Part shown: one piece after another, positions 12,257-25,000 of the stretch
Position numbering within the stretch: position 1 is the first letter of the stretch
Layout of the letters: every line of letters starts with the position of its first letter
Assembly: GCF_000020385.1 (NCBI RefSeq)
Contig: NC_010814.1
Location: 2,190,001 to 2,222,000, forward strand
Length of the DNA: 32,000 bases
Source: Trichlorobacter lovleyi SZ
GTDB lineage: Bacteria > Desulfobacterota > Desulfuromonadia > Geobacterales > Pseudopelobacteraceae
Reading direction: 5' to 3'
Translations under genes and position numbers: made by a program
Notes under the pieces: model-generated
Told to the model about the DNA's origin: nothing
The model's input: the letters and a program-made list of their open reading frames with translations, nothing else
Databases searched by the model: none

Positions 12257-14488
12257 TCAATTACTTAATAGTTTGGTTACACGCCGCTTTAAACGCTGTG
12301 CCTCCCGCGCCGATTGATTGGCCTGAGCAATCAGGAGTTGATGCAGCCCGCTCTGTTCCTGACCACTGGCCGGTTGTCGCTGCAGATAACTGCCATCCGG
12401 TTGCATCTCCCAGGCATAGCGCTGGTCAGCAACATGGGCATCCAGCAGCTCCCGTAACTGTTGCTGTAACGCTAACGACTCAACCGGGACCAGAATCTCA
12501 ACCCGCGATTCAAGGTTCCGTTTCATGGCATCAGCAGAACCAATGAAATATTCTTCCTGACCGCCATTTCTAAAATAATACAGACGACTGTGTTCCAGAA
12601 AGCGCCCGACAATACTGACCACTTTAGCCGTATCAGAAAGTCCCGGCACCCCCGGCCTGAACCGGCACGAATCCCGCACATAGAGATCTACCCGCACTCC
12701 GGCCTGACAGGCCCGATACAGGCTTTTCACAATGTCGCCATCATCAAGGGCATTCATTTTGAACTGAATCAGCCCTCCGCCCTTTTCTTGATGTAGCGTG
12801 ATCTCCCGCTCAATCTTTTCAAGCAGGGACCGTTTTAACAACTTGGGGGCCGGCAGCAGTTTTTTATAGGTCCGCTTTGGAGAGAGACCAGTGGTCAGAT
12901 AATTAAACAGTTCGGTCAGGTCCTGACCAATGGCATCATCGCTCGTGAACAGACCAAGGTCACTGTAGAGACGGGCCGTGTCAGTATGATAGTTGCCGGT
13001 ACCGATATGCACATAACGCCGGATACCGTTGTAATCACGCCGCACCACCAGAATCACCTTGCAGTGGGTTTTAAGGCCCACCACGCCGTAGGTAACATGG
13101 ATACCGGCCTCCTCCATCCGCTCGGCAATCCTCAGGTTGGCCGCCTCATCAAAACGGGCCTTCAACTCCACCACCACCGCCACCTGCTTACCATTTTCTG
13201 CTGCCCGCACCAACGACTCAATTAACCGCCCCTCCTTTGAGGTACGATAGAGGGTCATCTTGATGGCACAGACCTTGGGATCATCGGCTGCCTCATTCAG
13301 AAAACGCTCAACTGAACTGGCAAACGACTGATACGGATGTTTGACCAGAAAATCACCGCTGTTACGGATGATATGAAAGATGTTGCGGGACGACATCAAC
13401 TGGGGATGATCTTCCGGATGGTGGGGCGGATCATGCAGTTTCGGATGGTTCAGACAGGCAATCTCAAACAGGTCACGCATCCCCAGCATCTCTGATACTT
13501 CAAACACATCACTGGCCTCATCAAGATCCAGTTCTGCGGCCAGGCGACCTTTATGGACCGGATCCATGCCGGGCACCACCTCAAGCCGTACAATCGGAGC
13601 AAAGCGGCGTTCCTGCAGCTCTGACTCAATCATTGCCACCAGATCATCAGCCTTTTCTTCATCCTTCTCTGTGTTGGCATTGCGGGTTACCCGGAAAAGT
13701 TCACAGGAAACCACCTTCATACCCGGAAACAGCATATCAAGATTTGCAGCCATCACCTCTTCCAGCGGTACAAAACGTTCCCCTTTGCCGACCCGCATAA
13801 AACGGGCCACACCGGAGCCAAGCGGCACCTTGACCCGCGCCATTGAAACATCTTTTTCACGGGGATAGCGGACCGTTACCAGCAGGTTCAGCGAAAGGTT
13901 GGAGACAAAGGGAAAGGGATGGGCCGGGTCAATTGACTGGGGGGTCAGGAGCGGATAGATGTCTCGTGCATACAGCTCGCGTAACGCCTTTTGCTCACGG
14001 CTGGTAAGATCTTTCCACCCCACCACCTCAATGCCCTTCTCATCAAGCAAGTGCACCAGCTGCCTGTACAAGACAGCTTTGTCAGTGACCAGCGTACGGA
14101 CCTGAACATGACATTCCTGCAACTGCTGGCGGGGAGTACGCCCGTCAATGGTCAGTTCCTGCACACCTGCTGCCAGTTGCTGTTTCAAACCGCCAATCCG
14201 CTTCATAAAAAACTCATCCAGATTGGCACCGACTATGGCCAGAAACTTGACCCGCTCCAGCAGGGGAGTTCGCGGGTCTGATGCCTCACTCATCACCCGC
14301 CGGTTAAAGGCCAGCCAGGTCAGTTCACGGTTCAGATACCATTGGCTGTCATCAAGGTCAAAGACTTGAATGTCAGGCAGCTCGTTTAGCTCCTTATCAA
14401 CTTGCGGTACCGCTTTAACGGCCCGACGTCGTGGCTGAGCCGTTTTCTTAACAGGAGCGGCTTCACCCCCCTGGTGCACCTGATCCAT
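12257..14488 (-). CDS. ppk: Polyphosphate kinase 1
   Basis: Long PPK1-type sequence (NRELTWLAFNRRV, two PLD-like HxK-type regions, GTGNYH). Start taken at MDQVHQ (ATG 14488) after AAGGGGAAG. The track ORF continues to 14659 and would overlap the helicase start. Confidence 0.92.
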   Translation of the reverse strand: MDQVHQGGEAAPVKKTAQPRRRAVKAVPQVDKELNELPDIQVFDLDDSQWYLNRELTWLAFNRRVMSEASDPRTPLLERVKFLAIVGANLDEFFMKRIGGLKQQLAAGVQELTIDGRTPRQQLQECHVQVRTLVTDKAVLYRQLVHLLDEKGIEVVGWKDLTSREQKALRELYARDIYPLLTPQSIDPAHPFPFVSNLSLNLLVTVRYPREKDVSMARVKVPLGSGVARFMRVGKGERFVPLEEVMAANLDMLFPGMKVVSCELFRVTRNANTEKDEEKADDLVAMIESELQERRFAPIVRLEVVPGMDPVHKGRLAAELDLDEASDVFEVSEMLGMRDLFEIACLNHPKLHDPPHHPEDHPQLMSSRNIFHIIRNSGDFLVKHPYQSFASSVERFLNEAADDPKVCAIKMTLYRTSKEGRLIESLVRAAENGKQVAVVVELKARFDEAANLRIAERMEEAGIHVTYGVVGLKTHCKVILVVRRDYNGIRRYVHIGTGNYHTDTARLYSDLGLFTSDDAIGQDLTELFNYLTTGLSPKRTYKKLLPAPKLLKRSLLEKIEREITLHQEKGGGLIQFKMNALDDGDIVKSLYRACQAGVRVDLYVRDSCRFRPGVPGLSDTAKVVSIVGRFLEHSRLYYFRNGGQEEYFIGSADAMKRNLESRVEILVPVESLALQQQLRELLDAHVADQRYAWEMQPDGSYLQRQPASGQEQSGLHQLLIAQANQSAREAQRLKRRVTKLLSN

Positions 14489-14652
14489 CTTCTTCCCCTT
14501 ATGTTTACCAAGCTTGCGAGCAGCAGTCACATGCCACCTCCGGACAGTTATACTCTGATTTGATTCTACACCACTGTTACAATCATGCAACAAACAGCGG
14601 TTGTTTTGAAGCGGTTGATCAGGCCGGTCATCTGTGGTACACCACCTATCCC

Positions 14653-16650
14653 ATGTCACAACTCAATCCTGAACAATTCATCGCTGTCCACCATACCGAA
14701 GGCCCTCTACTGGTGCTGGCAGGTGCCGGATCAGGCAAGACTCAGGTCATCACCAGCCGGATCGTGCATCTGCTTGGCACCCTCAAAGTCCCGGCAGACC
14801 AGATCCTTGCGGTTACCTTTACCAACAAGGCTGCCAAAGAGATGCAGGAACGGGTCAAGCGGGCGGCAGGTGCCAAGTCGGAAGGGATGCTGATCAGCAC
14901 CTTTCACTCACTGGGGGTCCGCATCCTGCGCCGCGATATCCGCAGACTGGGCTACAAACCCAACTTCACCATCTACAGTGATAGTGATCAGTCTGGCGTG
15001 GTGCGTCAGGCCCTTTCAGACCTGAATATCGACACCAAACAGTTTCAACCGGATATGGTGCGTTGGCAGATTTCCATGGCCAAGAACCGACTGATTGCTC
15101 CTGATCAGTATCCCAAGTTGTCAACCAATCCGCTTGAGCAGGTTACCGCAGCGGTCTATCCCCGCTACCAACATCTGCTGCGGGCCTACAATGCCATCGA
15201 TTTTGACGACATCATCATGCTGACGGTACGGATGCTGGAGGAACTGCCTGAGGTTCGTCAGCACTGGCAGGACCGCTTCCGCTATATCATGGTGGATGAA
15301 TACCAGGATACCAATGCCGGCCAGTACAAGCTGATTTCATTGCTGGCACAGGGGCATGGCAACCTCTGCGTGGTGGGTGACGATGACCAGGCCATCTATG
15401 GCTGGCGCGGTGCAGATATTGCGAATATCCTCAACTTTTCTGCTGAACGCAGCAGCTGCAAGGTAGTTAAACTGGAGCAGAACTATCGCTCCACCGGCAC
15501 CATCCTGAATGCGGCAAACACCGTGATCCGCAACAACAGCAAACGCAGTGACAAGGCACTCTGGACCGCCTCAGGCACTGGCGAGCTGATCAGCCTGCTG
15601 GTGGCGGATACCGATGACGAAGAAGCCCGCCAGGTGGTGGAGCAGCTCCAACTGGCGCAATATCGTGACAAGCGTCCCTGGCGTGACTTTGCCATTCTGT
15701 ACCGTTCCAATGCCCAGAGCCGCGCCTTTGAAGAAGCGCTACGGATGGAAGAAGTACCGTACGTACTGGTGGGCGGCCAGAAGTTCTTTGAGCGTAAGGA
15801 AGTGAAAGACTCCCTCTCCTACCTGGCAGTACTGGCCAACCCGCGGGACGAGGCTGCCCTGGTCAGAACCATCAACTTCCCAAGACGGGGCATCGGCGGC
15901 ACCAGCCTGCTACGCCTGCAGCAGTGGTCCCTGGAACACAATCTGTCGCTGTACGACACCCTGGGCATGGCCGACCAGATCGAAGGGCTCAGTGAGGCAA
16001 CCCGTAAGGCAGTGAACGGCTTTCATACCATGATTAGACAGGAACTGGCTGACTTTACCAGCAATAACATGGCTTCCCAGGCAACCGCCCTGTTCAAGCG
16101 GCTGGGAATCAATCAGGAGCTGTATCGCACCATTGACAACCCGCTGCAGGCCCGCAAGCGGATTGAAAATATCGAACAGGTGATCAATGCCCTGGCCGGT
16201 TTTGAGGAACGAAACCCGACTGCAGGGCTGGCAGATTTTCTGGAGCGGATCGCCCTGTTGGAAGATAACCGGCGGGAAACTGACAATGACCAGCCCCAGG
16301 ATGCTGTTACGTTAATGTCGCTACACGCCAGCAAAGGTCTGGAATTTCCACAGGTCTTTCTGGTTGGTCTGGAGGAAGGACTGCTGCCCCACCACCGCTC
16401 CATTGATGAAGACCCTGAGGTGGCTGAGGAGCGGCGGCTCTGCTATGTGGGGATCACCCGCGCCAGGGAACGCCTGACCATCTCACGTTGCCTGAAACGC
16501 CGTAAATACGGAACCTGGGAGGAACGCCAGCCCAGCAGGTTTCTGGCTGAAATCCCACCGGAGCTGTTTGAAGGTGGAGATACGGAACACAAAGAAGCAG
16601 AACCGGTTGATATGGGGATGGATTTTTTTGCCCGAATGCAGAATATGTAG
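14653..16650 (+). CDS. UvrD/Rep/PcrA-family ATP-dependent DNA helicase
   Basis: MSQLNPEQ..., Walker A AGAGSGKT, TFTNKAAKEM, DEYQDTN, QNYRS, and VTLMSLHASKGLEF...YVGITRAR motifs. Confidence 0.92.
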   Translation: MSQLNPEQFIAVHHTEGPLLVLAGAGSGKTQVITSRIVHLLGTLKVPADQILAVTFTNKAAKEMQERVKRAAGAKSEGMLISTFHSLGVRILRRDIRRLGYKPNFTIYSDSDQSGVVRQALSDLNIDTKQFQPDMVRWQISMAKNRLIAPDQYPKLSTNPLEQVTAAVYPRYQHLLRAYNAIDFDDIIMLTVRMLEELPEVRQHWQDRFRYIMVDEYQDTNAGQYKLISLLAQGHGNLCVVGDDDQAIYGWRGADIANILNFSAERSSCKVVKLEQNYRSTGTILNAANTVIRNNSKRSDKALWTASGTGELISLLVADTDDEEARQVVEQLQLAQYRDKRPWRDFAILYRSNAQSRAFEEALRMEEVPYVLVGGQKFFERKEVKDSLSYLAVLANPRDEAALVRTINFPRRGIGGTSLLRLQQWSLEHNLSLYDTLGMADQIEGLSEATRKAVNGFHTMIRQELADFTSNNMASQATALFKRLGINQELYRTIDNPLQARKRIENIEQVINALAGFEERNPTAGLADFLERIALLEDNRRETDNDQPQDAVTLMSLHASKGLEFPQVFLVGLEEGLLPHHRSIDEDPEVAEERRLCYVGITRARERLTISRCLKRRKYGTWEERQPSRFLAEIPPELFEGGDTEHKEAEPVDMGMDFFARMQNM

Positions 16651-16749
16651 TAAACAACAACGCCCCTTCTCCAGTTTGACGTTATCACACTTCTATGATA
16701 CGCTCTCCACTTAATAGTATGGCATCTGAGCAATCTGAGGAGGTACACC

Positions 16750-16956
16750 ATGCCCCAAGCCATAACCGCCGTCTATGAAAACGGAGTTTTTATTCCTCAA
16801 ACTCCTGTCAATTTACCCCAACATACAGCCGTCATCATCTCTCTTCCTGCTGTCTCTCATTCAAAGTCCGGCAAACGTTTCTCAGCTTTGTTGCAAGAAC
16901 CGCTCATAGCTGAGCATATTGTAATACCTCCACGAGACGAGCTTCATGAACGTTAA
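16750..16956 (+). CDS. DUF104/AF2212-like antitoxin (VapB-type partner)
   Basis: N-terminus AITAVYENGVFIP...LP...V is characteristic of the family. GAGGAGG RBS. Overlaps the PIN gene by 11 nt. Confidence 0.7.
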   Translation: MPQAITAVYENGVFIPQTPVNLPQHTAVIISLPAVSHSKSGKRFSALLQEPLIAEHIVIPPRDELHER

Positions 16957-17356
16957 GGCATTCATTGACACCAACATTTTTGTGTACGCAGCAATCCAGG
17001 CAGCAGATTCACTTGCAAAACGGGAGTCTGCCGTTGCTCTTTTAAACAGCCCCACCCGGTATGTAGTCAGCACACAGGTACTTAACGAATTTGCCGCCGT
17101 TCTGTTAAAGAAAAAATTTAGCGACAAACTTATCAGAACCAGAGTTGAATCCATTGCAAACGAATGCAGCATCGCTGTTGTTGATATGAAGACCATCCGG
17201 CTGGGTTGGGATCTGCGCCAGCGTTACAACCTCTCCTTATGGGATAGCCTGATAGCTGCTTCAGCCCTGATCGCAAAGTGTACTATTCTCTACACTGAAG
17301 ACATGCAAAACGGACTGCTTATTGATAACAGTCTCCACGTTGTGAACCCGTTTTAG
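16946..17356 (+). CDS. vapC: PIN-domain toxin
   Basis: FIDTNIFVYA N-terminal acidic motif, about 136 aa, with later conserved D/E positions (WDSLI, TED). Confidence 0.85.
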   Translation: MNVKAFIDTNIFVYAAIQAADSLAKRESAVALLNSPTRYVVSTQVLNEFAAVLLKKKFSDKLIRTRVESIANECSIAVVDMKTIRLGWDLRQRYNLSLWDSLIAASALIAKCTILYTEDMQNGLLIDNSLHVVNPF

Positions 17357-17431
17357 CTGCATAGCGCCATCAAACACCACTGCATCACCCGCTGAATTTC
17401 CTTCCCAGACCATAAAGCCTGCAATACATAC

Positions 17432-17467
17432 AAAAAAAACCGGGAAGACCATAACAGCCTCCCCGGT
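17432..17467 (-). terminator. Candidate rho-independent terminator closing the DGR operon
   Basis: Minus strand reads ACCGGG...CCCGGT (with extra inner pairs) followed by T8. Confidence 0.45.
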
Positions 17468-17490
17468 GGGTACTTCAACCAATCACCAAA

Positions 17491-17507
17491 CCCGGCTTTT
17501 GGCCGGG
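17491..17507 (-). other. GC hairpin CCCGGC-5 nt-GCCGGG, 4 nt downstream of VR1/IMH
   Basis: 6-bp all-G/C stem with a 5-nt loop. It is flanked on both sides by the octamer CCAATCAC (17479-17486 and 17508-17515). Confidence 0.5.
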
Positions 17508-17511
17508 CCAA

Positions 17512-18012
17512 TCACTGACCGGCACGCACTAACCGCACATAGACGGAATAGCCACGGTTGCTGTAGTCAACGAGCCCATGGTCGAAACTGACGTACCAGG
17601 CGCCGTAACTATTGCCTGCATAGGGAGAAGCAGACCAGGTGTAGCCTGCCGGTGTGGCTGGAAAGGCGGTGGTATCAATGGCCGGGTTGCTGCGGGTTCT
17701 ATCCACAATGCTGCCCAGTTCTTTAATGTTGGGCAGCTTCCAGCCGGTCTGGGTCTTGGCATAGGCCAGGGCTGCCTGATGGGTATAGGTGGCGGCAGTA
17801 CCTGTGCAGGTGGTTCCGCTCCAGCTCATACCAGCCACACAGCGCTGCCAGGTAAGCCCGGTTGTGCTGTCAATCACCTGGCTGCCATCGGTAGAGTAAC
17901 TATAACGATCTGCCCATGCCGATGCGCTCATCAGCAACAGCCCCAGCAAGAACAGGGCAGCCAACAGTGCTGGTTTCGTTGTCATCATCTGTCTGTTTGT
18001 ACGTGCTTTCAT
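17512..18012 (-). CDS. DGR target protein 1: secreted DUF1566 (C-type-lectin-fold) protein with C-terminal variable region
   Basis: Signal peptide, then GLTWQR...WKLPNIKEL...YWSASP...YVRLVRAGQ. The last ~40 codons are VR1. AAAGGAGA RBS. Confidence 0.9.
   Translation of the reverse strand: MKARTNRQMMTTKPALLAALFLLGLLLMSASAWADRYSYSTDGSQVIDSTTGLTWQRCVAGMSWSGTTCTGTAATYTHQAALAYAKTQTGWKLPNIKELGSIVDRTRSNPAIDTTAFPATPAGYTWSASPYAGNSYGAWYVSFDHGLVDYSNRGYSVYVRLVRAGQ
17516..17637 (-). repeat. DGR variable repeat VR1 (122 bp)
   Basis: Aligns without gaps to TR 19272-19393. There are 19 mismatches. 18 are at TR adenines (coding strand) and 1 is a synonymous GGC/GGG change. Confidence 0.92.
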
Positions 18013-18026
18013 CTTCTGTTTCTCCT

Positions 18027-19271
18027 TTAGGTGTAAACTATCTTCATTGCGTTACGGCGGCGTGCAAGCTTGTGACGCGCCGGTTGTTTTACAACAAGGC
18101 CAGCATCAGCATGTAACTGAAAAAAATTGTGCAGCCAGTTAAATCGCTTAAACAGTGCATGGCGAAGACGCACACTATTGGCATGGCAGAAATGCCCCCA
18201 ATAGCTGCCCAGCAGCGCTTGCAATTTGCTGAAAGACTCTGTGCTGACCATCTGGGCAGCTTGGCCATACTGTTGCCACCAACCTGAAAGCTTCTTGCAG
18301 CAGTGCTTTACTACCCTGGGGCGCACAAGGCGATGGCCGCAGTAGACCCGATACCCCAGAAAATCCACCCCATGATGTAACGGCGCCAGCACCACGGCAT
18401 CTTTCAGGCGCAGCTGCAGTCTGGTTTCAAGAAAAGCAGCTATCTCTGCCTGCCATGTACGCAACTGCTCTTTACTGTCTGCCAACAGCACAAAATCATC
18501 CACATAGCGCAGATAATTCCGCACCTTTAGTTGATGCTTGATGAATTGATCCAGCTCATTCAGATAGACATTGGCAAAAAACTGGCTGGTAAGATTACCC
18601 ACCGGCAAACCGCACTGGGGTCGGGCGTTACGAAGCCGTTTGTGGGGCGGCACAGAAGATGGCGCAGCCCCAGGCCGTTCAATTTCTCGGCTTTTACGGG
18701 CAAGTAACTTATGACACAGGCTGCGTAACGCCAGTCTCTGGCTATCTGCCAGCTTTCCTTTCTGCAAGGCCAGATCAAGACGGCGGCACAGCAGGGCATA
18801 TAAGGTAGGGCGATGGATGCTGTTAAAATAGTTATGGATATCCAGTTGCAGATACCAGCCCTGTCCGTTTCTGCGGCGGATCATCTGCTGCAGACGATCA
18901 ACCGCTGCGTGGCTACCCTTAGCAGTGCGGTTAGCATAGCTATCGTATACAAATACCGGTTCATACAGGCGCTGAAGCCGATCCACCAGCAGGTGGTGGA
19001 CAATCCGGTCGGCAAACGCCGGCGCATGTATCTCACGGGTCTTGGGGTGAGTTACGGTAAAACAAACAGTGGGGGCTGGCTGCCAGCAGCCAGCACGCAG
19101 GCTGCTGTACAACTGGTGCAGGTTATCCAGCCAACGTGCCTCAAACAAAAGTTGATTGGCGCTGGGCTTTTTGCCGCGCCTGGCCTGTAGCCAGGCAGCA
19201 TGGCAGGCAGAAAACCGGACAGACACCGGCAGATTGGGAGAATAGACTGCTTTCACCGTGCTTAGCTCCAT
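18027..19271 (-). CDS. DGR reverse transcriptase
   Basis: RT motifs include YVDD (RYVDDFVLL) and the DGR-typical LPVGNLTSQ ([ILV]GxxxSQ). No maturase or endonuclease domain. Flanked by TR and a VR-bearing gene. Confidence 0.93.
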   Translation of the reverse strand: MELSTVKAVYSPNLPVSVRFSACHAAWLQARRGKKPSANQLLFEARWLDNLHQLYSSLRAGCWQPAPTVCFTVTHPKTREIHAPAFADRIVHHLLVDRLQRLYEPVFVYDSYANRTAKGSHAAVDRLQQMIRRRNGQGWYLQLDIHNYFNSIHRPTLYALLCRRLDLALQKGKLADSQRLALRSLCHKLLARKSREIERPGAAPSSVPPHKRLRNARPQCGLPVGNLTSQFFANVYLNELDQFIKHQLKVRNYLRYVDDFVLLADSKEQLRTWQAEIAAFLETRLQLRLKDAVVLAPLHHGVDFLGYRVYCGHRLVRPRVVKHCCKKLSGWWQQYGQAAQMVSTESFSKLQALLGSYWGHFCHANSVRLRHALFKRFNWLHNFFQLHADAGLVVKQPARHKLARRRNAMKIVYT

Positions 19272-19393
19272 TGACCGGCACGCACTAACCGCACATAGTT
19301 GGTATTGTTACGGTTGTTGTTGTTAACGTTGCCATTGTTGAAATTGACGTTCCAGGCGTTGTTACTATTGCCTGCATAGGGAGAAGCAGACCA
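19272..19393 (-). repeat. DGR template repeat (TR), 122 nt, 15 AAY codons in the virtual frame
   Basis: The virtual translation is ...AGNSNNAWNVNFNNGNVNNNNRNNTNYVRLVRAGQ. It is the invariant adenine-rich copy of VR1 and VR2. It lies between the avd-like gene and the RT. Confidence 0.92.
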
Positions 19394-19452
19394 CAACGCC
19401 AACCCGCCCACTTGCGACGCAGCAGCACAGCTTAAAAGGTAGCGCTGCCTTA

Positions 19453-19998
19453 TCATGGTGTAGCCTCGTTTGAGGCGGAACGGGTACTCAGTGAAGCGGG
19501 ACGATCCTGCGCCCTGCCAGTGGCAGGCGCAGACTGTTGCCCGGTGAAGGCCGCTATTGCACGGCCATCGCACGATTCTGGTGATACATCCGATCTGGCG
19601 CTGCACGGTTTATTTTGTGCAGAGCGCCACCAGCCACCACACTGTTTGCCTACTGCTGCGGCAAGATGCGCCGCAGTTTCAAAATGAGAGAACGGTACCC
19701 CGGCTGTCGGCTGTTTCCGTTTAGCCGGGCTTGCCTGATTGAAAACCCCCAGCTCCATGCCAAGCTGCAGACTGAGCTTATAGTCATCCACCAGCCAGAT
19801 CAGGCTGTTCAGGTGCTCTTTCTGCTGGGCCTTGTCAAACACCAGCCTATGCACGGTACGCATGATTGCCATGGCCTGTTGCCTCAGATCCGTTCCCAAG
19901 GTGTACTTATGGTAACGGCTGAAGCAACGCACCATCTCTTCAGTATGCACCAGCAGCCTGCGGCAATCACGGTATATGGGTGGTAATGATGTATGCAT
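19453..19998 (-). CDS. avd: Avd-like accessory variability determinant (four-helix-bundle family) with an unusually long C-terminal tail
   Basis: Sits between target and TR. Helical, basic sequence (YRDCRRLLVHTEEMV...YHKYTLGTDLRQQAM...LIWLVDDYK...VGKQCGGWWRS) resembles Bordetella bAvd in layout. ATG 19998 is preferred over TTG 20019. Confidence 0.7.
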   Translation of the reverse strand: MHTSLPPIYRDCRRLLVHTEEMVRCFSRYHKYTLGTDLRQQAMAIMRTVHRLVFDKAQQKEHLNSLIWLVDDYKLSLQLGMELGVFNQASPAKRKQPTAGVPFSHFETAAHLAAAVGKQCGGWWRSAQNKPCSARSDVSPESCDGRAIAAFTGQQSAPATGRAQDRPASLSTRSASNEATP

Positions 19999-20019
19999 GG
20001 CAGATGGCCAAGTATCCAA

Positions 20020-20973
20020 TCACTGACCGGCACGCACTAACCGCACATAGACGGCATTGCCACGGCCGCCGCCGTTAACGCCGCCAAAGCTGAAATGGAC
20101 GACCCAGGCGTAGTCACTATAGCCTGCATAGGGAGAAGCAGACCAGTAGGCGCTGCCCACGGTGTTTGGAAACCAGGTGCTATTAATGGTTGGGGCGGGG
20201 TAAGCAATGCTGTAGTCCACAATCATCTGCAGTTCATCAGCCGTGGGCAGGCGCCAGTCTGTATACCCGCAGAGGCTGGTTGCATTCACTGCTGTTACAT
20301 AGGCAGAGGCATCACCGGCTCTGCTGTCACCGTAGTTGGTATAGGTGTTGTCTTTATCCCGCAGGCCGCCATCATCGGTCTTGCCTTCCCAGATCAGGCC
20401 AGTTTTGTTGTCCTGTACGCAGGAAGTAAGCGGGTAAGCCCCCACAGCGCTGTAGCTCATACCGCTTGTACCGGGGGTAATCATACCGTCCTGCTGGTCA
20501 TTCAAGGCAATGGCACCGGCACTGCTGCAGCTTATCAGCGTATCGCTTCCGGCCTGATAACATTGCTGATCAGTTATGCCGGTGTCAGGCAGACTGGCGA
20601 CAAATGCTGCTGCCACAGTTATTGTCTGGCTGGCATCGATCACCGTACCACCACTGGCAGTCAGCACGGTTATGGTCTTTGTCCCGGCGCTACCACCAGG
20701 TGTGCAGCTTTGCGTTATGGTAGTGGCACTATTTACTGTTGGGCTGTCGCAGGTGCCGTCTTGCAAGGTAAAGACCGCGGTTAACGGCAGGTTGGCACCG
20801 GTTACAGTAATACTTACGGCCGTGCCGATGGTTGCGGTGCTGGCAGGGGTTACGGCACTGACCGTGGAGGTTGTGGTGGTCGTGGTTGCACTGCTACTGC
20901 CGCCGCATGCGGCCAGCAGCAGGGTTGCTGCCACGCATAGGCCATGTACAAAATACTGTTGTTTTTTCTTCAT
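20020..20973 (-). CDS. DGR target protein 2: lipoprotein with Thr/Ser linker, Ig-like segment and C-terminal DUF1566 (CLec-fold) domain ending in VR2
   Basis: Lipobox LLLAAC. GLIWEGK...WRLPTADEL...YWSASP...YVRLVRAGQ. GGAGG RBS. Confidence 0.9.
   Translation of the reverse strand: MKKKQQYFVHGLCVAATLLLAACGGSSSATTTTTTSTVSAVTPASTATIGTAVSITVTGANLPLTAVFTLQDGTCDSPTVNSATTITQSCTPGGSAGTKTITVLTASGGTVIDASQTITVAAAFVASLPDTGITDQQCYQAGSDTLISCSSAGAIALNDQQDGMITPGTSGMSYSAVGAYPLTSCVQDNKTGLIWEGKTDDGGLRDKDNTYTNYGDSRAGDASAYVTAVNATSLCGYTDWRLPTADELQMIVDYSIAYPAPTINSTWFPNTVGSAYWSASPYAGYSDYAWVVHFSFGGVNGGGRGNAVYVRLVRAGQ
20024..20145 (-). repeat. DGR variable repeat VR2 (122 bp)
   Basis: Aligns without gaps to the TR. 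There are 22 mismatches, all at TR adenines. Confidence 0.92.
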
Positions 20974-21003
20974 CTTGTTACCTCCTTTGGGGTTTAATTA
21001 CGC

Positions 21004-21035
21004 AAAAAAACCGCCCCCCAATAGCCGGGAAGCGG
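21004..21035 (-). terminator. Intrinsic-terminator-like hairpin in the leader, about 30 nt upstream of the DGR target-2 start
   Basis: Minus strand reads CCGCUUCCC-ggcuauu-GGGGGGCGG (9 bp, 2 G-U pairs) followed by U7. Confidence 0.5.
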
Positions 21036-21078
21036 TTGTGTGCACTACGTTATGTAAAAAACAGGGGATTACGCCATT

Positions 21079-21143
21079 TGTGCTGTGCTGTGCTGTGCTG
21101 TGCTGTGCTGTGCTGTGCTGTGCTGTGCTGTGCTGTGCTGTGC
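21079..21143. repeat. Pentanucleotide microsatellite (TGCTG)12 plus partial units
   Basis: Twelve perfect tandem TGCTG units at 21081-21140, with partial units on both flanks. Intergenic, 105-170 bp upstream of DGR target 2. Confidence 0.97.
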
Positions 21144-21187
21144 ATCGGGCAGGCTCGTTTGGCAGGAGTGGCTTTCTAGGTCAATAA

Positions 21188-21227
21188 TTTGTATACACTA
21201 ACAAAAGTCGTGTCAAGAGATTTGACA
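21188..21227 (-). promoter_or_regulatory. Candidate sigma-70 promoter (TTGACA-17 nt-TACAAA, minus strand) with palindrome TGTCAA-N5-TTGACA over the -35
   Basis: -35 is the complement of 21211-21216 and -10 is the complement of 21188-21193. Direct repeats CTTACAAA x2 lie just upstream (21234-21252). Confidence 0.3.
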
Positions 21228-21302
21228 GCGTTTTCTTACAAACTCTTACAAAAGTGCGATGTTACCTACAAAGAAAAAACAAAACGGACCACAGTAACAA
21301 CA

Positions 21303-21333
21303 ACGCCCCTGCGAGATTGACTCACAGGGGCGT
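21303..21333 (-). terminator. Stem-loop terminator after the DUF1858 gene
   Basis: ACGCCCCTG...CAGGGGCGT 9-bp stem with T/U-rich flanks on both strands. Confidence 0.5.
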
Positions 21334-21360
21334 TTTCAGTTTTCTTCTGGTTGAGAAAAG

Positions 21361-21570
21361 CTATTTTACCGCAGCATTCAGGTCAGCCAACAGCTGCTCC
21401 GGGTCAAGACCGTGGTTGATGGCCCCCAGGTCAATCGGCTCACTCTGGGCTCCCATACAGCCGGCACAGGCCAGGTTGTACTTCTTCAGAACCTTGGCTG
21501 TTTCAGGATAGGTCCGCAACATCTCAAGAAACGTCATATCTTTGGTGATTTTAGCTGTTGCCTGTGCCAT
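21361..21570 (-). CDS. DUF1858 / hybrid-cluster-protein-associated redox disulfide protein
   Basis: 69 aa. TFLEMLRTYPETAKVLKKYNLACAGCMG...L motif typical of the family. Confidence 0.8.
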   Translation of the reverse strand: MAQATAKITKDMTFLEMLRTYPETAKVLKKYNLACAGCMGAQSEPIDLGAINHGLDPEQLLADLNAAVK

Positions 21571-21582
21571 ACCCTACCCCCC

Positions 21583-22059
21583 CTACTCGTATTTTATCTC
21601 AATGATTTCATATTCTTTAGTGCCAGCCGGCACCTTCACCTTGACTGAATCATCCAGCTTGTGTCCAATCAGCGCCTTGCCGACCGGTGAGGTGCAGGAG
21701 ATCTTGCCCAACTTGATGTCAGCCTCGTCTTCACCAACGATCTTGTAGGTGATCTCTTCTTCTGAGGCCGTATCATACAGGGTAACCGTGGCTCCAAAGA
21801 CCACCTTATCCGGCTTGAGTCCGGTCAGGTCAACCACATGGGCACGTGCCAGCTTGCCCTGCAGCTCCTGAATCCTGCCCTCAATAAACCCCTGACGGTT
21901 TTTGGCAGCATCGTATTCAGCATTCTCAGAAAGGTCACCATGACTACGTGCCTCAGCAATATCCTGAATCACCTTGGGACGTTCTTCACGAATCAAACGC
22001 TTCAGCTCTTCCTGAAGTGCCTCATAGCTCTCTTTGGTAAGTGGTATGTTGTTTGACAT
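21583..22059 (-). CDS. greA: Transcription elongation factor GreA
   Basis: 158 aa. LT..SYE.L..EL..L...ERP......A.A...GDLSENAEYDAAK is canonical GreA. Confidence 0.95.
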   Translation of the reverse strand: MSNNIPLTKESYEALQEELKRLIREERPKVIQDIAEARSHGDLSENAEYDAAKNRQGFIEGRIQELQGKLARAHVVDLTGLKPDKVVFGATVTLYDTASEEEITYKIVGEDEADIKLGKISCTSPVGKALIGHKLDDSVKVKVPAGTKEYEIIEIKYE

Positions 22060-22062
22060 CGG

Positions 22063-25000
22063 TTACTTCAGCTCCTGACAAAGATAGTCCTGCAGCGGCT
22101 TAACCCGTAGTTCCTGCCCCTTCAGGGCAATAATGGCATCGACAGCGGCATTGGCACCGGTGGCAGTGGTGTAATAGGCAACGCTGTGCATCAAGGCTTC
22201 ACGACGGATTGAGAATGAGTCAGCCACGGCCTGGGCTCCCTGGGTGGTGTTGATCACCAGTTGCACCTCGCCGTTTTTCAAGGCATCAACAATATGAGGG
22301 CGGCCTTCCATGACCTTGTTGATCCGACGCACCGGAATACCTTTTTCTTCAAGGAATGACGCCGTACCACCGGTTGCAAGGATGCCGAATCCGGCTTTAT
22401 ACAGTTTTTCAGCAGCAGTGACAACATGTTTCTTATCCCCATCCCGTACGCTGATAAAGGCGTTACCGGAAAGCGGCATCTTGACGTTGGCGCCCAGCTG
22501 CGATTTGGCAAAGGCCTCGGCAAAGCTGTCACCGATTCCCATTACCTCACCGGTAGACTTCATCTCAGGCCCCAGGATGGTATCCACACCTGGAAACTTG
22601 ACAAACGGGAAGACCGCTTCCTTGACTGAAAAGTAATCCGGTACAATGTCACCGGAGACACCCAGTTCTGCCAGGGTTTTGCCAGCCATGATCCGGGCAG
22701 CGATCTTTGCCAGCGGACGACCGGTGGCCTTGGAGACAAACGGAGCGGTACGGGACGCACGGGGGTTAACCTCAAGGATATAGATGGTACCATCCTTGAC
22801 CGCGTACTGGACGTTCATAAGACCGATAACATTCAGCTCAAGGGCCATGATCTCGGTCTGGCGGCGTACCTCGGCAATCAGTTCCTGGGACAATGAGTAA
22901 GGTGGCAGGGAACAGGCGGAATCACCGGAATGGATACCAGCCTCTTCAATATGCTCCATGATCCCGCCGATCACCACCTGCTTGCCATCGCAAAGGGCGT
23001 CCACATCGATCTCAATGGCAGCATCCAGAAATTTATCCACAAGAATCGGATGTTCAGGCGAGGCCTGGACCGCAGTGGTCATATAGCGCCGCAGGTTCTC
23101 CACATCGTAGACAATCTCCATGGCCCGTCCACCCAGTACATAGGAAGGACGTACCACCACCGGATAGCCGATCCGGTTGGCCACCTCTTCAGCCTCTTCA
23201 AAGGAACGGGCCGTACCATTGGCAGGTTGCAGCAGGTCCAGCTTGTGCAGCATTTCCTGGAAACGCTCACGATCCTCAGCCCGGTCAATGGCATCCGGGC
23301 TGGTACCGATGATAGGCACACCGGCCTTTTCAAGGGCCACTGACAACTTGAGCGGCGTCTGGCCGCCAAACTGCACGATCACCCCCACCGGATTTTCCTT
23401 GGCCACGATCTCCAGCACATCCTCCTGGGTCAGCGGCTCAAAGTAGAGACGGTCAGAGGTGTCATAATCAGTGGAAACTGTTTCCGGGTTGCAGTTGACC
23501 ATGATGGTCTCGTAGCCATCCTCTGCCAGGGCAAAGACGCCATGCACGCAGCAGTAGTCAAACTCGATCCCCTGGCCGATCCGGTTGGGTCCCCCCCCCA
23601 GGATGATGATCTTCTTACGGTCGGTTACCTCTGCCTCGCACTCTTCCTCATAGGTTGAATAGAGATAGGGGGTATAGGCCACAAACTCGGCTGCACAGGT
23701 ATCCACCCGTTTGTAAACCGGACGCACCTTCAGGCTCCAGCGCAGTTCACGCACCTGGTCTTCGCTGACCTTCCAGAGCTTTGCCAGCATCTTGTCAGAG
23801 AAACCGTACTGCTTGGCTTCATACAGCTGGTCACGGGTAACAGCAGTTGGATGCAGCCCTTTCAGCTCTTCTTCCTTTTCAATAATCTGGCGCATGTTGT
23901 TCACAAACCAGGGATCAAAGGCGGTATGCTTGTACACCTCATCAACCGTCATGCCGCTGCGCAGGGCATCCCCCAGGTACCAGAGCCGGTCTGCATTGGG
24001 GACACTCAACTTCTCAAGCAGCAGTTGCTGCTCATGGTCAGTCAGGGAACGGCGGGTCTCACTGCCAAGATCAAACAGCTTGGAATCAAAACCGCAGACA
24101 CCGATCTCAAGGGAACGGAGCGCCTTCTGGAACGATTCCTTGAAGGTCCGGCCAATGGCCATCACCTCCCCCACCGACTTCATCTGGGTAGTCAGTGTGG
24201 CGTCGGCAGCCGGGAATTTTTCAAAGGTAAAGCGCGGAATCTTGGTGACCACATAATCGATGGTCGGCTCAAAGCAGGCCGGTGTCTCTCGGGTAATGTC
24301 ATTGCGGATCTCATCCAGAGTATAGCCAACAGCCAGCTTGGCAGCGATCTTGGCAATCGGGAAGCCGGTCGCCTTGGAAGCCAGGGCAGATGAACGGGAG
24401 ACCCGCGGGTTCATTTCGATTACCACCAGACGGCCATCACGGGGATTGATACCGAACTGGATGTTGGAACCTCCGGTATCAACACCGATCTCGCGGATGA
24501 TCTTCAACGAGGCATCCCGCAGGATCTGGTATTCCTTGTCGGTCAGGGTCTGGGCCGGGGCAACGGTGATGGAGTCACCGGTGTGAACCCCCATGGGATC
24601 AAAGTTCTCAATGGAGCAGATGATCACCACGTTGTCAGCCGTGTCCCGCATCACCTCCAGTTCATACTCTTTCCAGCCGATTACCGACTCTTCCACCAGA
24701 ATCTCGTCGGTTGGTGAGGCATCAATCCCCACCATGGCCATCCGCTCGTACTCTTCCATATTGTAGGCGATGCCGCCGCCGGTACCGCCCAGGGTAAAGG
24801 AGGGACGGATAATGGCCGGAAAGCCAACCTGTTTGATCACCTCCATCACCTCTGTACGGTTATGGGCCAGGCCTGATTTAGGTACGGACAGACCGATCTT
24901 CTCCATGGCCTGCTTGAACAGGGTACGATCTTCAGCCTTTTTAATGGCAGGCAGTTTGGCACCGATCAGCTCAACCCCAAACTTGTCCAGAATCCCCATC

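Follow-up and report, generated by a model that had tools for sequence, protein, structure and literature searches.

The 32,000-nt stretch of DNA analysed here (the window) holds what is very probably a canonical diversity-generating retroelement (DGR) in the chromosome of Trichlorobacter (Geobacter) lovleyi SZ, with one template repeat (TR) and two targets. Comparison with sister strains shows at least two rewrites of one of its two VRs, VR1, over a span in which 7.8 kb of flanking sequence acquired no point mutation. The organism was recognized by exact look-up of three proteins (ACD95788, ACD95789 and ACD95792). Neither the element nor the type of system is new, a DGR with two VRs being already entered for G. 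lovleyi SZ in the DiGReF catalogue of 2012 (PMC3521204); what accompanies it here is clear natural evidence of activity.

By the established DGR mechanism, the TR would be transcribed, and the reverse transcriptase (RT) together with an Avd-like protein would make a cDNA, misincorporating opposite about half of the template adenines. This cDNA would then be substituted for the VR to which it is homologous, at the 3' end of a target gene. A single TR would in this way serve two targets, both of the Lcl_C/DUF1566 class, with 20 variable codons recoded.

Layout and parts of the locus

The only three-copy repeat family that a repeat finder returned in the window lies at 17508-17686, 19264-19442 and 20016-20194, with all three copies on the minus strand and a homologous core of 125 nt in each. 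Read along that strand, the order of the locus is target2, avd-like gene, TR, RT, target1. The TR (19269..19393, minus strand; 125 nt, 38 adenines; sequence WSASPYAGNSNNAWNVNFNNGNVNNNNRNNTNYVRLVRAGQ) overlaps the start of the RT gene, whose ATG start codon is the last 3 nt of the repeat. VR1 (17513..17637, minus strand) and VR2 (20021..20145, minus strand), each likewise 125 nt, form the last 41 codons of target1 and target2, respectively. The stretch TATGTGCGGTTAGTGCGTGCCGGTCA is common to the TR and both VRs, after which the VRs continue with GTGATTGG (17508..17515 for VR1 and 20016..20023 for VR2, minus strand) and the TR with ATGGAGCT. The GC-rich GTGCGTGCCGGTCA, shared by the TR and the VRs, lies next to this split, an arrangement that to judge from the sequence would be of the IMH/IMH* type. 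The direction of transfer would accordingly be expected to be set by the 3' end, with GTGCGTGCCGGTCA present in both TR and VR and GTGATTGG in the VRs only.

Both targets end in an Lcl_C/DUF1566 domain, and both VRs occupy the C-terminus of this C-type-lectin-like domain, which is where variable sequence is found in DGR targets. Target1 (17512..18012, minus strand; 166 aa, ACD95788) carries an N-terminal signal peptide and matches Pfam Lcl_C with E 2e-30, and target2 (20020..20973, minus strand; 317 aa, ACD95792) carries the lipoprotein-type signal LLLAAC and a Thr/Ser-rich N-terminal half and matches the same family with E 1.6e-33. Both are thus predicted to be secreted C-type-lectin-like (Lcl_C/DUF1566) proteins, and target2 is predicted to be a lipoprotein. 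An AlphaFold2 model of target1 (pLDDT 86.5) found as its top Foldseek hit the Legionella Lcl C-terminal domain (8q4e), followed by C-type lectins, at scores that are weak throughout (E 2.5e-3 or worse, TM 0.43-0.60). A PDB sequence search with target2 gave zero matches.

The RT (18027..19271, minus strand; 414 aa, called at 409 aa by NCBI as ACD95789) matches Pfam RVT_1 with E 4.9e-17 in profile libraries that include no DGR-specific RT model, and its translation contains the motifs GNLTSQ and YVDD, in agreement with the DGR-type combination of I/LGxxxSQ and YxDD. Its best sequence match in the PDB is 8ub7_A, entitled 'Reverse transcriptase' (E 6.4e-40), which we take to be bRT, the RT of Bordetella phage BPP-1; group II intron and retron RTs scored far below it in the same search. 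The Avd-like gene (19453..19998, minus strand; 181 aa, counted from an ATG 21 nt after the listed TTG) is a putative avd. Residues 15-130 of its product match the model NF033474 DivGenRetAVD (E 2.6e-4, 21 bits, under the cut-off of 80), and a match to bAvd is also below threshold (E 0.006, 17.5 bits, under the cut-off of 40); full-length homologues with 52-54% identity occupy the equivalent position in related DGRs, and it is this conserved position, together with the sub-threshold HMM matches, that points to an Avd. A PDB sequence search with the Avd-like protein gave zero matches. An open frame at 19262-19606 (minus strand) encloses the TR, ends just past the RT start and has a Pfam Lcl_C match. 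It is annotated at 64 aa in other assemblies and resembles a shortened duplicate of the C-terminal part of a target.

The cassette ends in a strong intrinsic-terminator-like stem with a T-run (17439..17467, minus strand), which is separate from the hairpin that follows VR1. The neighbours are housekeeping genes, carB, greA, uvrD and ppk, and the base composition of the DGR island is indistinguishable from that of its flanks. A promoter scan gave matches no more numerous than in shuffled controls, a search of 16000-22000 against Rfam with an E limit of 0.1 gave zero RNA families, and comparison of the RT with phage and plasmid collections returned nothing above ~40% identity, identifying no mobile-element source. 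Upstream of target2, perfect tandem copies of a pentanucleotide, (TGTGC)13 on the plus strand at 21079-21143, lie 105-170 nt from the start codon; short-read assemblies break this repeat, (CAGCA)n on the other strand, or collapse it to about k-mer length.

Adenine-specific variation and the alleles of VR1

When the TR, VR1 and VR2 were compared ungapped on the minus strand over the full 125 nt, VR1 differed from the TR at 20 positions, 19 of them TR adenines and one a C>G change, and VR2 differed at 23 positions, all 23 of them TR adenines. Against the 38 adenines in the 125-nt TR, this enrichment has hypergeometric probabilities of 4.3e-11 for VR1 and 2.0e-15 for VR2. The single non-adenine change, at 19331, turns GGC into GGG and is synonymous. 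Both VRs also have an A>G change at 19271, by which CAA becomes CAG in the final codon ahead of the stop. A preliminary description of this DNA, made by eye over 19272-19393, had counted 19 differences between the TR and VR1 (18 at adenines and the GGC>GGG change) and 22 between the TR and VR2, all at adenines. The recount agrees exactly with both figures and reproduces exactly the TR, VR1 and VR2 peptide strings quoted there, and the per-position check against TR base identity that it had proposed leaves a small non-adenine fraction (1/20 for VR1, 0/23 for VR2).

The same description had held that the two VRs diversified separately from one TR, and the comparison bears this out: 22 of the 23 positions at which VR1 and VR2 differ from each other are TR-adenine positions, and the fraction of shared bases fits independent draws. 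At sites substituted in both members of a pair, the same base was found in 26 of 66 cases over all allele pairs, where 0.45 is expected for independent draws under the observed A>G/T/C spectrum. Pooled over alleles, this spectrum comprises 40 A>G, 29 A>T and 5 A>C substitutions, and in further alleles 17/17 and 19/21 mismatches fall at TR adenines. There are 20 variable codons, giving a theoretical repertoire of ~1e20 peptides; 16 of them are AAY codons, from which no stop codon can be reached.

Sister strains were found by an exact look-up of the RT protein, which led to nine short contigs from other samples, and by a look-up of a target1 variant, which led to a 10.7-kb contig, L010. The preliminary description had proposed a comparison of this kind, asking whether the VRs differ while the TR and flanks are identical, and for VR1 they do. 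Contig L010 aligns without gaps over 7,966 nt (window positions 21108..13143), and each of its 24 mismatches falls within VR1, at 17540-17621; in a second contig, L002, the aligned part spans 2,309 nt and the 25 mismatches are likewise all within VR1. In seven other RT contigs the aligned stretches match the window at 100% identity, with the exception of L005, which is cut within VR1 and differs from the window only there. The TR is identical in every sister contig that covers it, and RT and avd are intact and invariant. Contig breaks of the Logan assemblies at TR/VR edges, which arise because the repeats share a 30-mer, were not counted as heterogeneity within a sample.

VR1 thus occurs as three alleles in strains that are otherwise identical over the compared flanks and the TR. 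Allele a is present in SZ, SRR9436582 and SRR21915715, allele b in SRR25435824, and allele c in ERZ27315029, SRR5324000 and the MAG UBA6802. The alleles differ from one another at 19-25 positions, against zero substitutions in 2.3-7.8 kb of flank, and in each, 16-22 of the variable span's 35 adenines are substituted. Because about half of the adenines are substituted and the same-base fraction fits independent draws, the alleles are independent rewrites of the whole VR and not stepwise derivatives of one another. Among the VR1 alleles compared, none is a mosaic of the others.

That the adenine pattern is instead a fossil, left by ancient homing of an element now inactive on both targets, we regard as highly improbable. 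Such a reading could draw on the identity of VR2 in every sample, and on a sister lineage, described below, that has lost RT and TR and in which the VRs are frozen, so that decay of the element does occur. For VR1, however, a fossil is contradicted by three alleles that differ at up to 25 positions while the flank is unsubstituted, and RT, avd and TR have remained intact and invariant.

To the left of the pentanucleotide repeat, contig L010 is 96.7% identical to window 21114-23933 (carB-greA), while to the right of it (13143-21108) identity is 100% outside VR1 for 7.8 kb. This suggests either that the identical ~8 kb, with the DGR segment, was recently brought in by recombination or that the contig is chimeric; whichever applies, the confinement of mismatches to VR1 is unaltered. 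In the contig from UBA6802, a 540-nt tract in the uvrD 5' region (window 14658-15198) differs mostly at every third base and the remainder is identical, so that the tract looks like one of recombination. The same contig has a small cluster of indels in the 3' tail of avd (window 19517-19524).

In the RT-bearing lineage three changes stand at positions other than adenines, and their placement makes drift unlikely. Allele c has two of them, C24>T and G42>T (L010:6281 and 6299), and the third is the change at 19331; each of the three has a substituted adenine as its direct 3' neighbour. Such positions make up 26% of the non-adenine positions in the variable span, which gives a chance of ~0.02 for three out of three. 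Because the 7.8-kb stretch is without substitution, at least one of alleles a and c must postdate its common ancestor, and at least one non-adenine change was therefore made together with homing. The earlier suggestion that the single non-adenine change in VR1 is ordinary drift is thus probably wrong, and error during mutagenic homing is the more likely source of these changes. The RT would copy its template 3'>5', so that the base 5' of a misincorporated adenine would be the next to be copied, from a mismatched primer end. In a small sample of nine TR/VR pairs from related DGRs, zero non-adenine changes were found; in the survey of Wu et al., they occur in 23% of DGRs, and their origin was left open (PMC5758913).

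A lineage without reverse transcriptase

Genomes of related Trichlorobacter, traced through the neighbouring DUF1858 protein, show the locus in two other states. In some (contigs L012-L015, L019 and L020), the DUF1858 gene adjoins uvrD directly, at an uninterrupted site with one copy of a repeat. This empty site in relatives defines the DGR, together with a PIN/AF2212-like toxin-antitoxin pair, as a 4.6-kb island (about 16653..21310), flanked in the window by a 15-nt direct repeat, AGGGGCGTTGTTGTT, at 16653-16667 and 21296-21310. At its left copy the repeat overlaps with the DUF1858 gene's terminator stem, and no integrase was found within the 4.6 kb. The toxin-antitoxin genes (16750-17356, plus strand) form a VapBC-type pair, with an AF2212-like antitoxin of 68 aa and a PIN-domain toxin of 136 aa. 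The pair lies inside the island beside target1 and is retained with the targets in the second locus state.

In this second state, that of a lineage ~95% identical to the window, positions 19748..17968, which hold the 3' half of avd, the TR and RT, have been replaced by ~257 nt. The replacement (L011:4812-5068, also present in L016, L017 and L018) has 30-nt imperfect inverted repeats and is MITE-like. What remains is a truncated avd and both VRs, which keep the adenine-specific pattern: 19/20 and 20/22 of their differences fall at A positions. Both of these VRs share a T>C change at TR position 69, which probably reflects the lineage's own, lost TR. Two members of the lineage, L011 and L017, are identical in both VRs and differ by 15 SNPs elsewhere. 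The counts of mismatches in VR and flank are thus opposite in the two lineages: with the RT present, 24 fall in VR1 and 0 in the flank, and with the RT deleted, 0 fall in the VRs and 15 in the flank.

This contrast weighs against a reading without reverse transcription, in which diversifying selection, or gene conversion between paralogous Lcl_C genes, would have produced the variation. The targets are indeed paralogous, with VRs identical at their 5' and 3' ends, and a target1 variant encoded by a 1,688-nt ENA contig, the protein P0126, joins an SZ-type N-terminus to the other lineage's VR, which implies recombination or chimerism at the locus. In P0126 the N-terminal 122 aa are those of SZ, and the RT-less lineage is matched by the final 44 aa, two of which lie upstream of the VR; the protein derives either from recombination or from a metagenome contig that is chimeric. 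Selection or gene conversion would nevertheless have to account for substitutions confined to TR-adenine positions, for zero mosaic alleles, for a TR that never varies, and for VRs that stop changing where RT and TR are deleted. We consider it barely credible as an explanation, and the DGR remains the reading adopted here.

Two targets, one template and related elements

Recent activity is shown for VR1 only, because VR2 is identical in all samples that carry the element. The exact target2 protein was found in 5 further samples (ERZ27315029, SRR25435824, SRR25435821, ERR7764176 and ERR7764179), and the five contigs that encode it match the window at 100% nucleotide identity. Two of these samples, ERZ27315029 with VR1 allele c and SRR25435824 with allele b, thus carry an unchanged VR2 beside a rewritten VR1. 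Among 5.8 billion clustered proteins, no other VR2 allele was found at >=90% identity. The preliminary view that the element is, or recently was, active therefore stands for VR1, with its three alleles against a constant TR and flanks, and does not extend to VR2, which may have diverged from the TR long ago and on which the element may not act at present. The asymmetry between VR1 and VR2 is suggestive, given that only two or more events were observed. Some of the public samples may be resequencings of one culture, and only ~three independent populations underlie the contrast.

The two VRs also differ in what follows them. A candidate DGR target hairpin or cruciform (17490..17508, minus strand), with a 7-bp stem and a 5-nt loop (GCCCGGC / CAAAA / GCCGGGT), starts 4 nt after the VR1 stop codon, while 3' of VR2 there is no structure beyond that of shuffled controls (z +0.88). 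On both sides of the VR1 hairpin stands GTGATTGG, the whole (17478-17515, minus strand) reading CAGTGATTGG-hairpin-TTTGGTGATTGG, and in the predicted fold CCGGTCA of the VR end pairs with the second copy of GTGATTGG. Efficient homing in BPP-1 depends on a hairpin or cruciform directly 3' of the VR (PMC3240598). By analogy, the hairpin would fit VR1 as the more active target. As the cause of greater activity at VR1 than at VR2, it is weakened by a related DGR that varies at an upstream VR lacking a hairpin.

Taken jointly, these observations might be read as a hairpin-followed VR1 that outpaces point mutation, a hairpin-less lipoprotein VR2 that is frozen, and non-adenine changes that are a by-product of mismatched-primer extension, a combination that we put forward tentatively and hold to be rather doubtful as a whole. 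The two VRs may instead home at similar rates, the constancy of VR2 being due to the small number of populations sampled or to selection for one allele, and this has a substantial chance of being correct, if somewhat short of even. Two or more VR1 events only are in evidence, and at equal rates the chance that all would fall in VR1 is ~0.25; the related DGR's upstream VR, hairpin-less as VR2 is, does vary between samples. Equal rates sit less easily with an exact VR2 protein that recurs in those 5 further samples alongside at least two other VR1 alleles, and with the zero count of other VR2 alleles in the clustered proteins.

The DUF1566/CLec2 class of targets ('category d') has as its exemplar the DGR of Legionella pneumophila, with target LdtA (Wu et al. 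2018, PMC5758913). Like that of T. lovleyi, the Legionella element is chromosomal and not phage-borne, has adjacent avd (putative in T. lovleyi) and RT, and acts on a surface or secreted target (target2 being the lipoprotein here) with a C-terminal DUF1566/Lcl_C domain and an AAY-rich VR. Unlike it, the T. lovleyi element has two adjacent targets flanking avd-TR-RT, and a twin-arginine signal is not evident in either of them. With BPP-1 (mtd-avd-TR-brt) the element shares the order target-avd-TR-RT, adenine mutagenesis with ~50% substitution per adenine, an IMH-type difference at the 3' end and, as a candidate, a hairpin directly after a VR. It differs from BPP-1 in lying on a chromosome and not in a phage, in having targets of the Lcl_C class and not Mtd, in a second target downstream of RT, in a hairpin loop of CAAAA and not of 4 nt, and in a TR that overlaps the RT start codon, so that any spacer RNA would lie inside the RT coding region.

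Related DGRs (L021-L043) were found by scanning for the 31-nt VR 3' end GTGCGGTTAGTGCGTGCCGGTCAGTGATTGG, and come from MAGs and metagenome contigs of Betaproteobacteria (Hydrogenophilales, Nitrosomonadales, Georgfuchsia) and Gammaproteobacteria. The betaproteobacterial DGRs share with T. lovleyi the five-part layout, Lcl_C targets and a hairpin after the downstream VR only, which in the relatives is GCCGC-GCA-GCGGC. The 31-nt VR 3' end, with GTGATTGG in it, is the same in them as in T. lovleyi, a conservation that is partly built in by the exact-match selection. Their RT and Avd proteins are 55-66% and 52-54% identical, respectively, to those of T. lovleyi, and the 3' distinction between TR and VR is GGTGAGTGGAGCG in the relatives as compared to GGTCAATGGAGCT in T. 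lovleyi. Between the TR and the conserved RT core the relatives have a longer, hairpin-rich spacer, with an extra segment that T. lovleyi is without, and a search for a spacer RNA conserved 3' of the TR yielded no alignable structure common to T. lovleyi and the relatives. In one betaproteobacterial DGR of equivalent layout, both VRs vary between samples. The relatives' upstream VR codons use different synonymous bases despite the identical 31-nt end, which indicates, at the level of sequence comparison, that the homing site may be under nucleotide-level constraint. Transfer between Betaproteobacteria and Trichlorobacter is probable on the same comparison.

T. lovleyi is a cultivable and environmentally relevant dechlorinating bacterium. 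The value of its element is that of a natural demonstration, in which strain differences are confined to one VR where RT and TR are present and there are none in the VRs after their deletion. Two leads follow from it, namely a possibly unequal use of two targets by one DGR, and substitutions at non-adenine positions that the RT may make next to misincorporated adenines.
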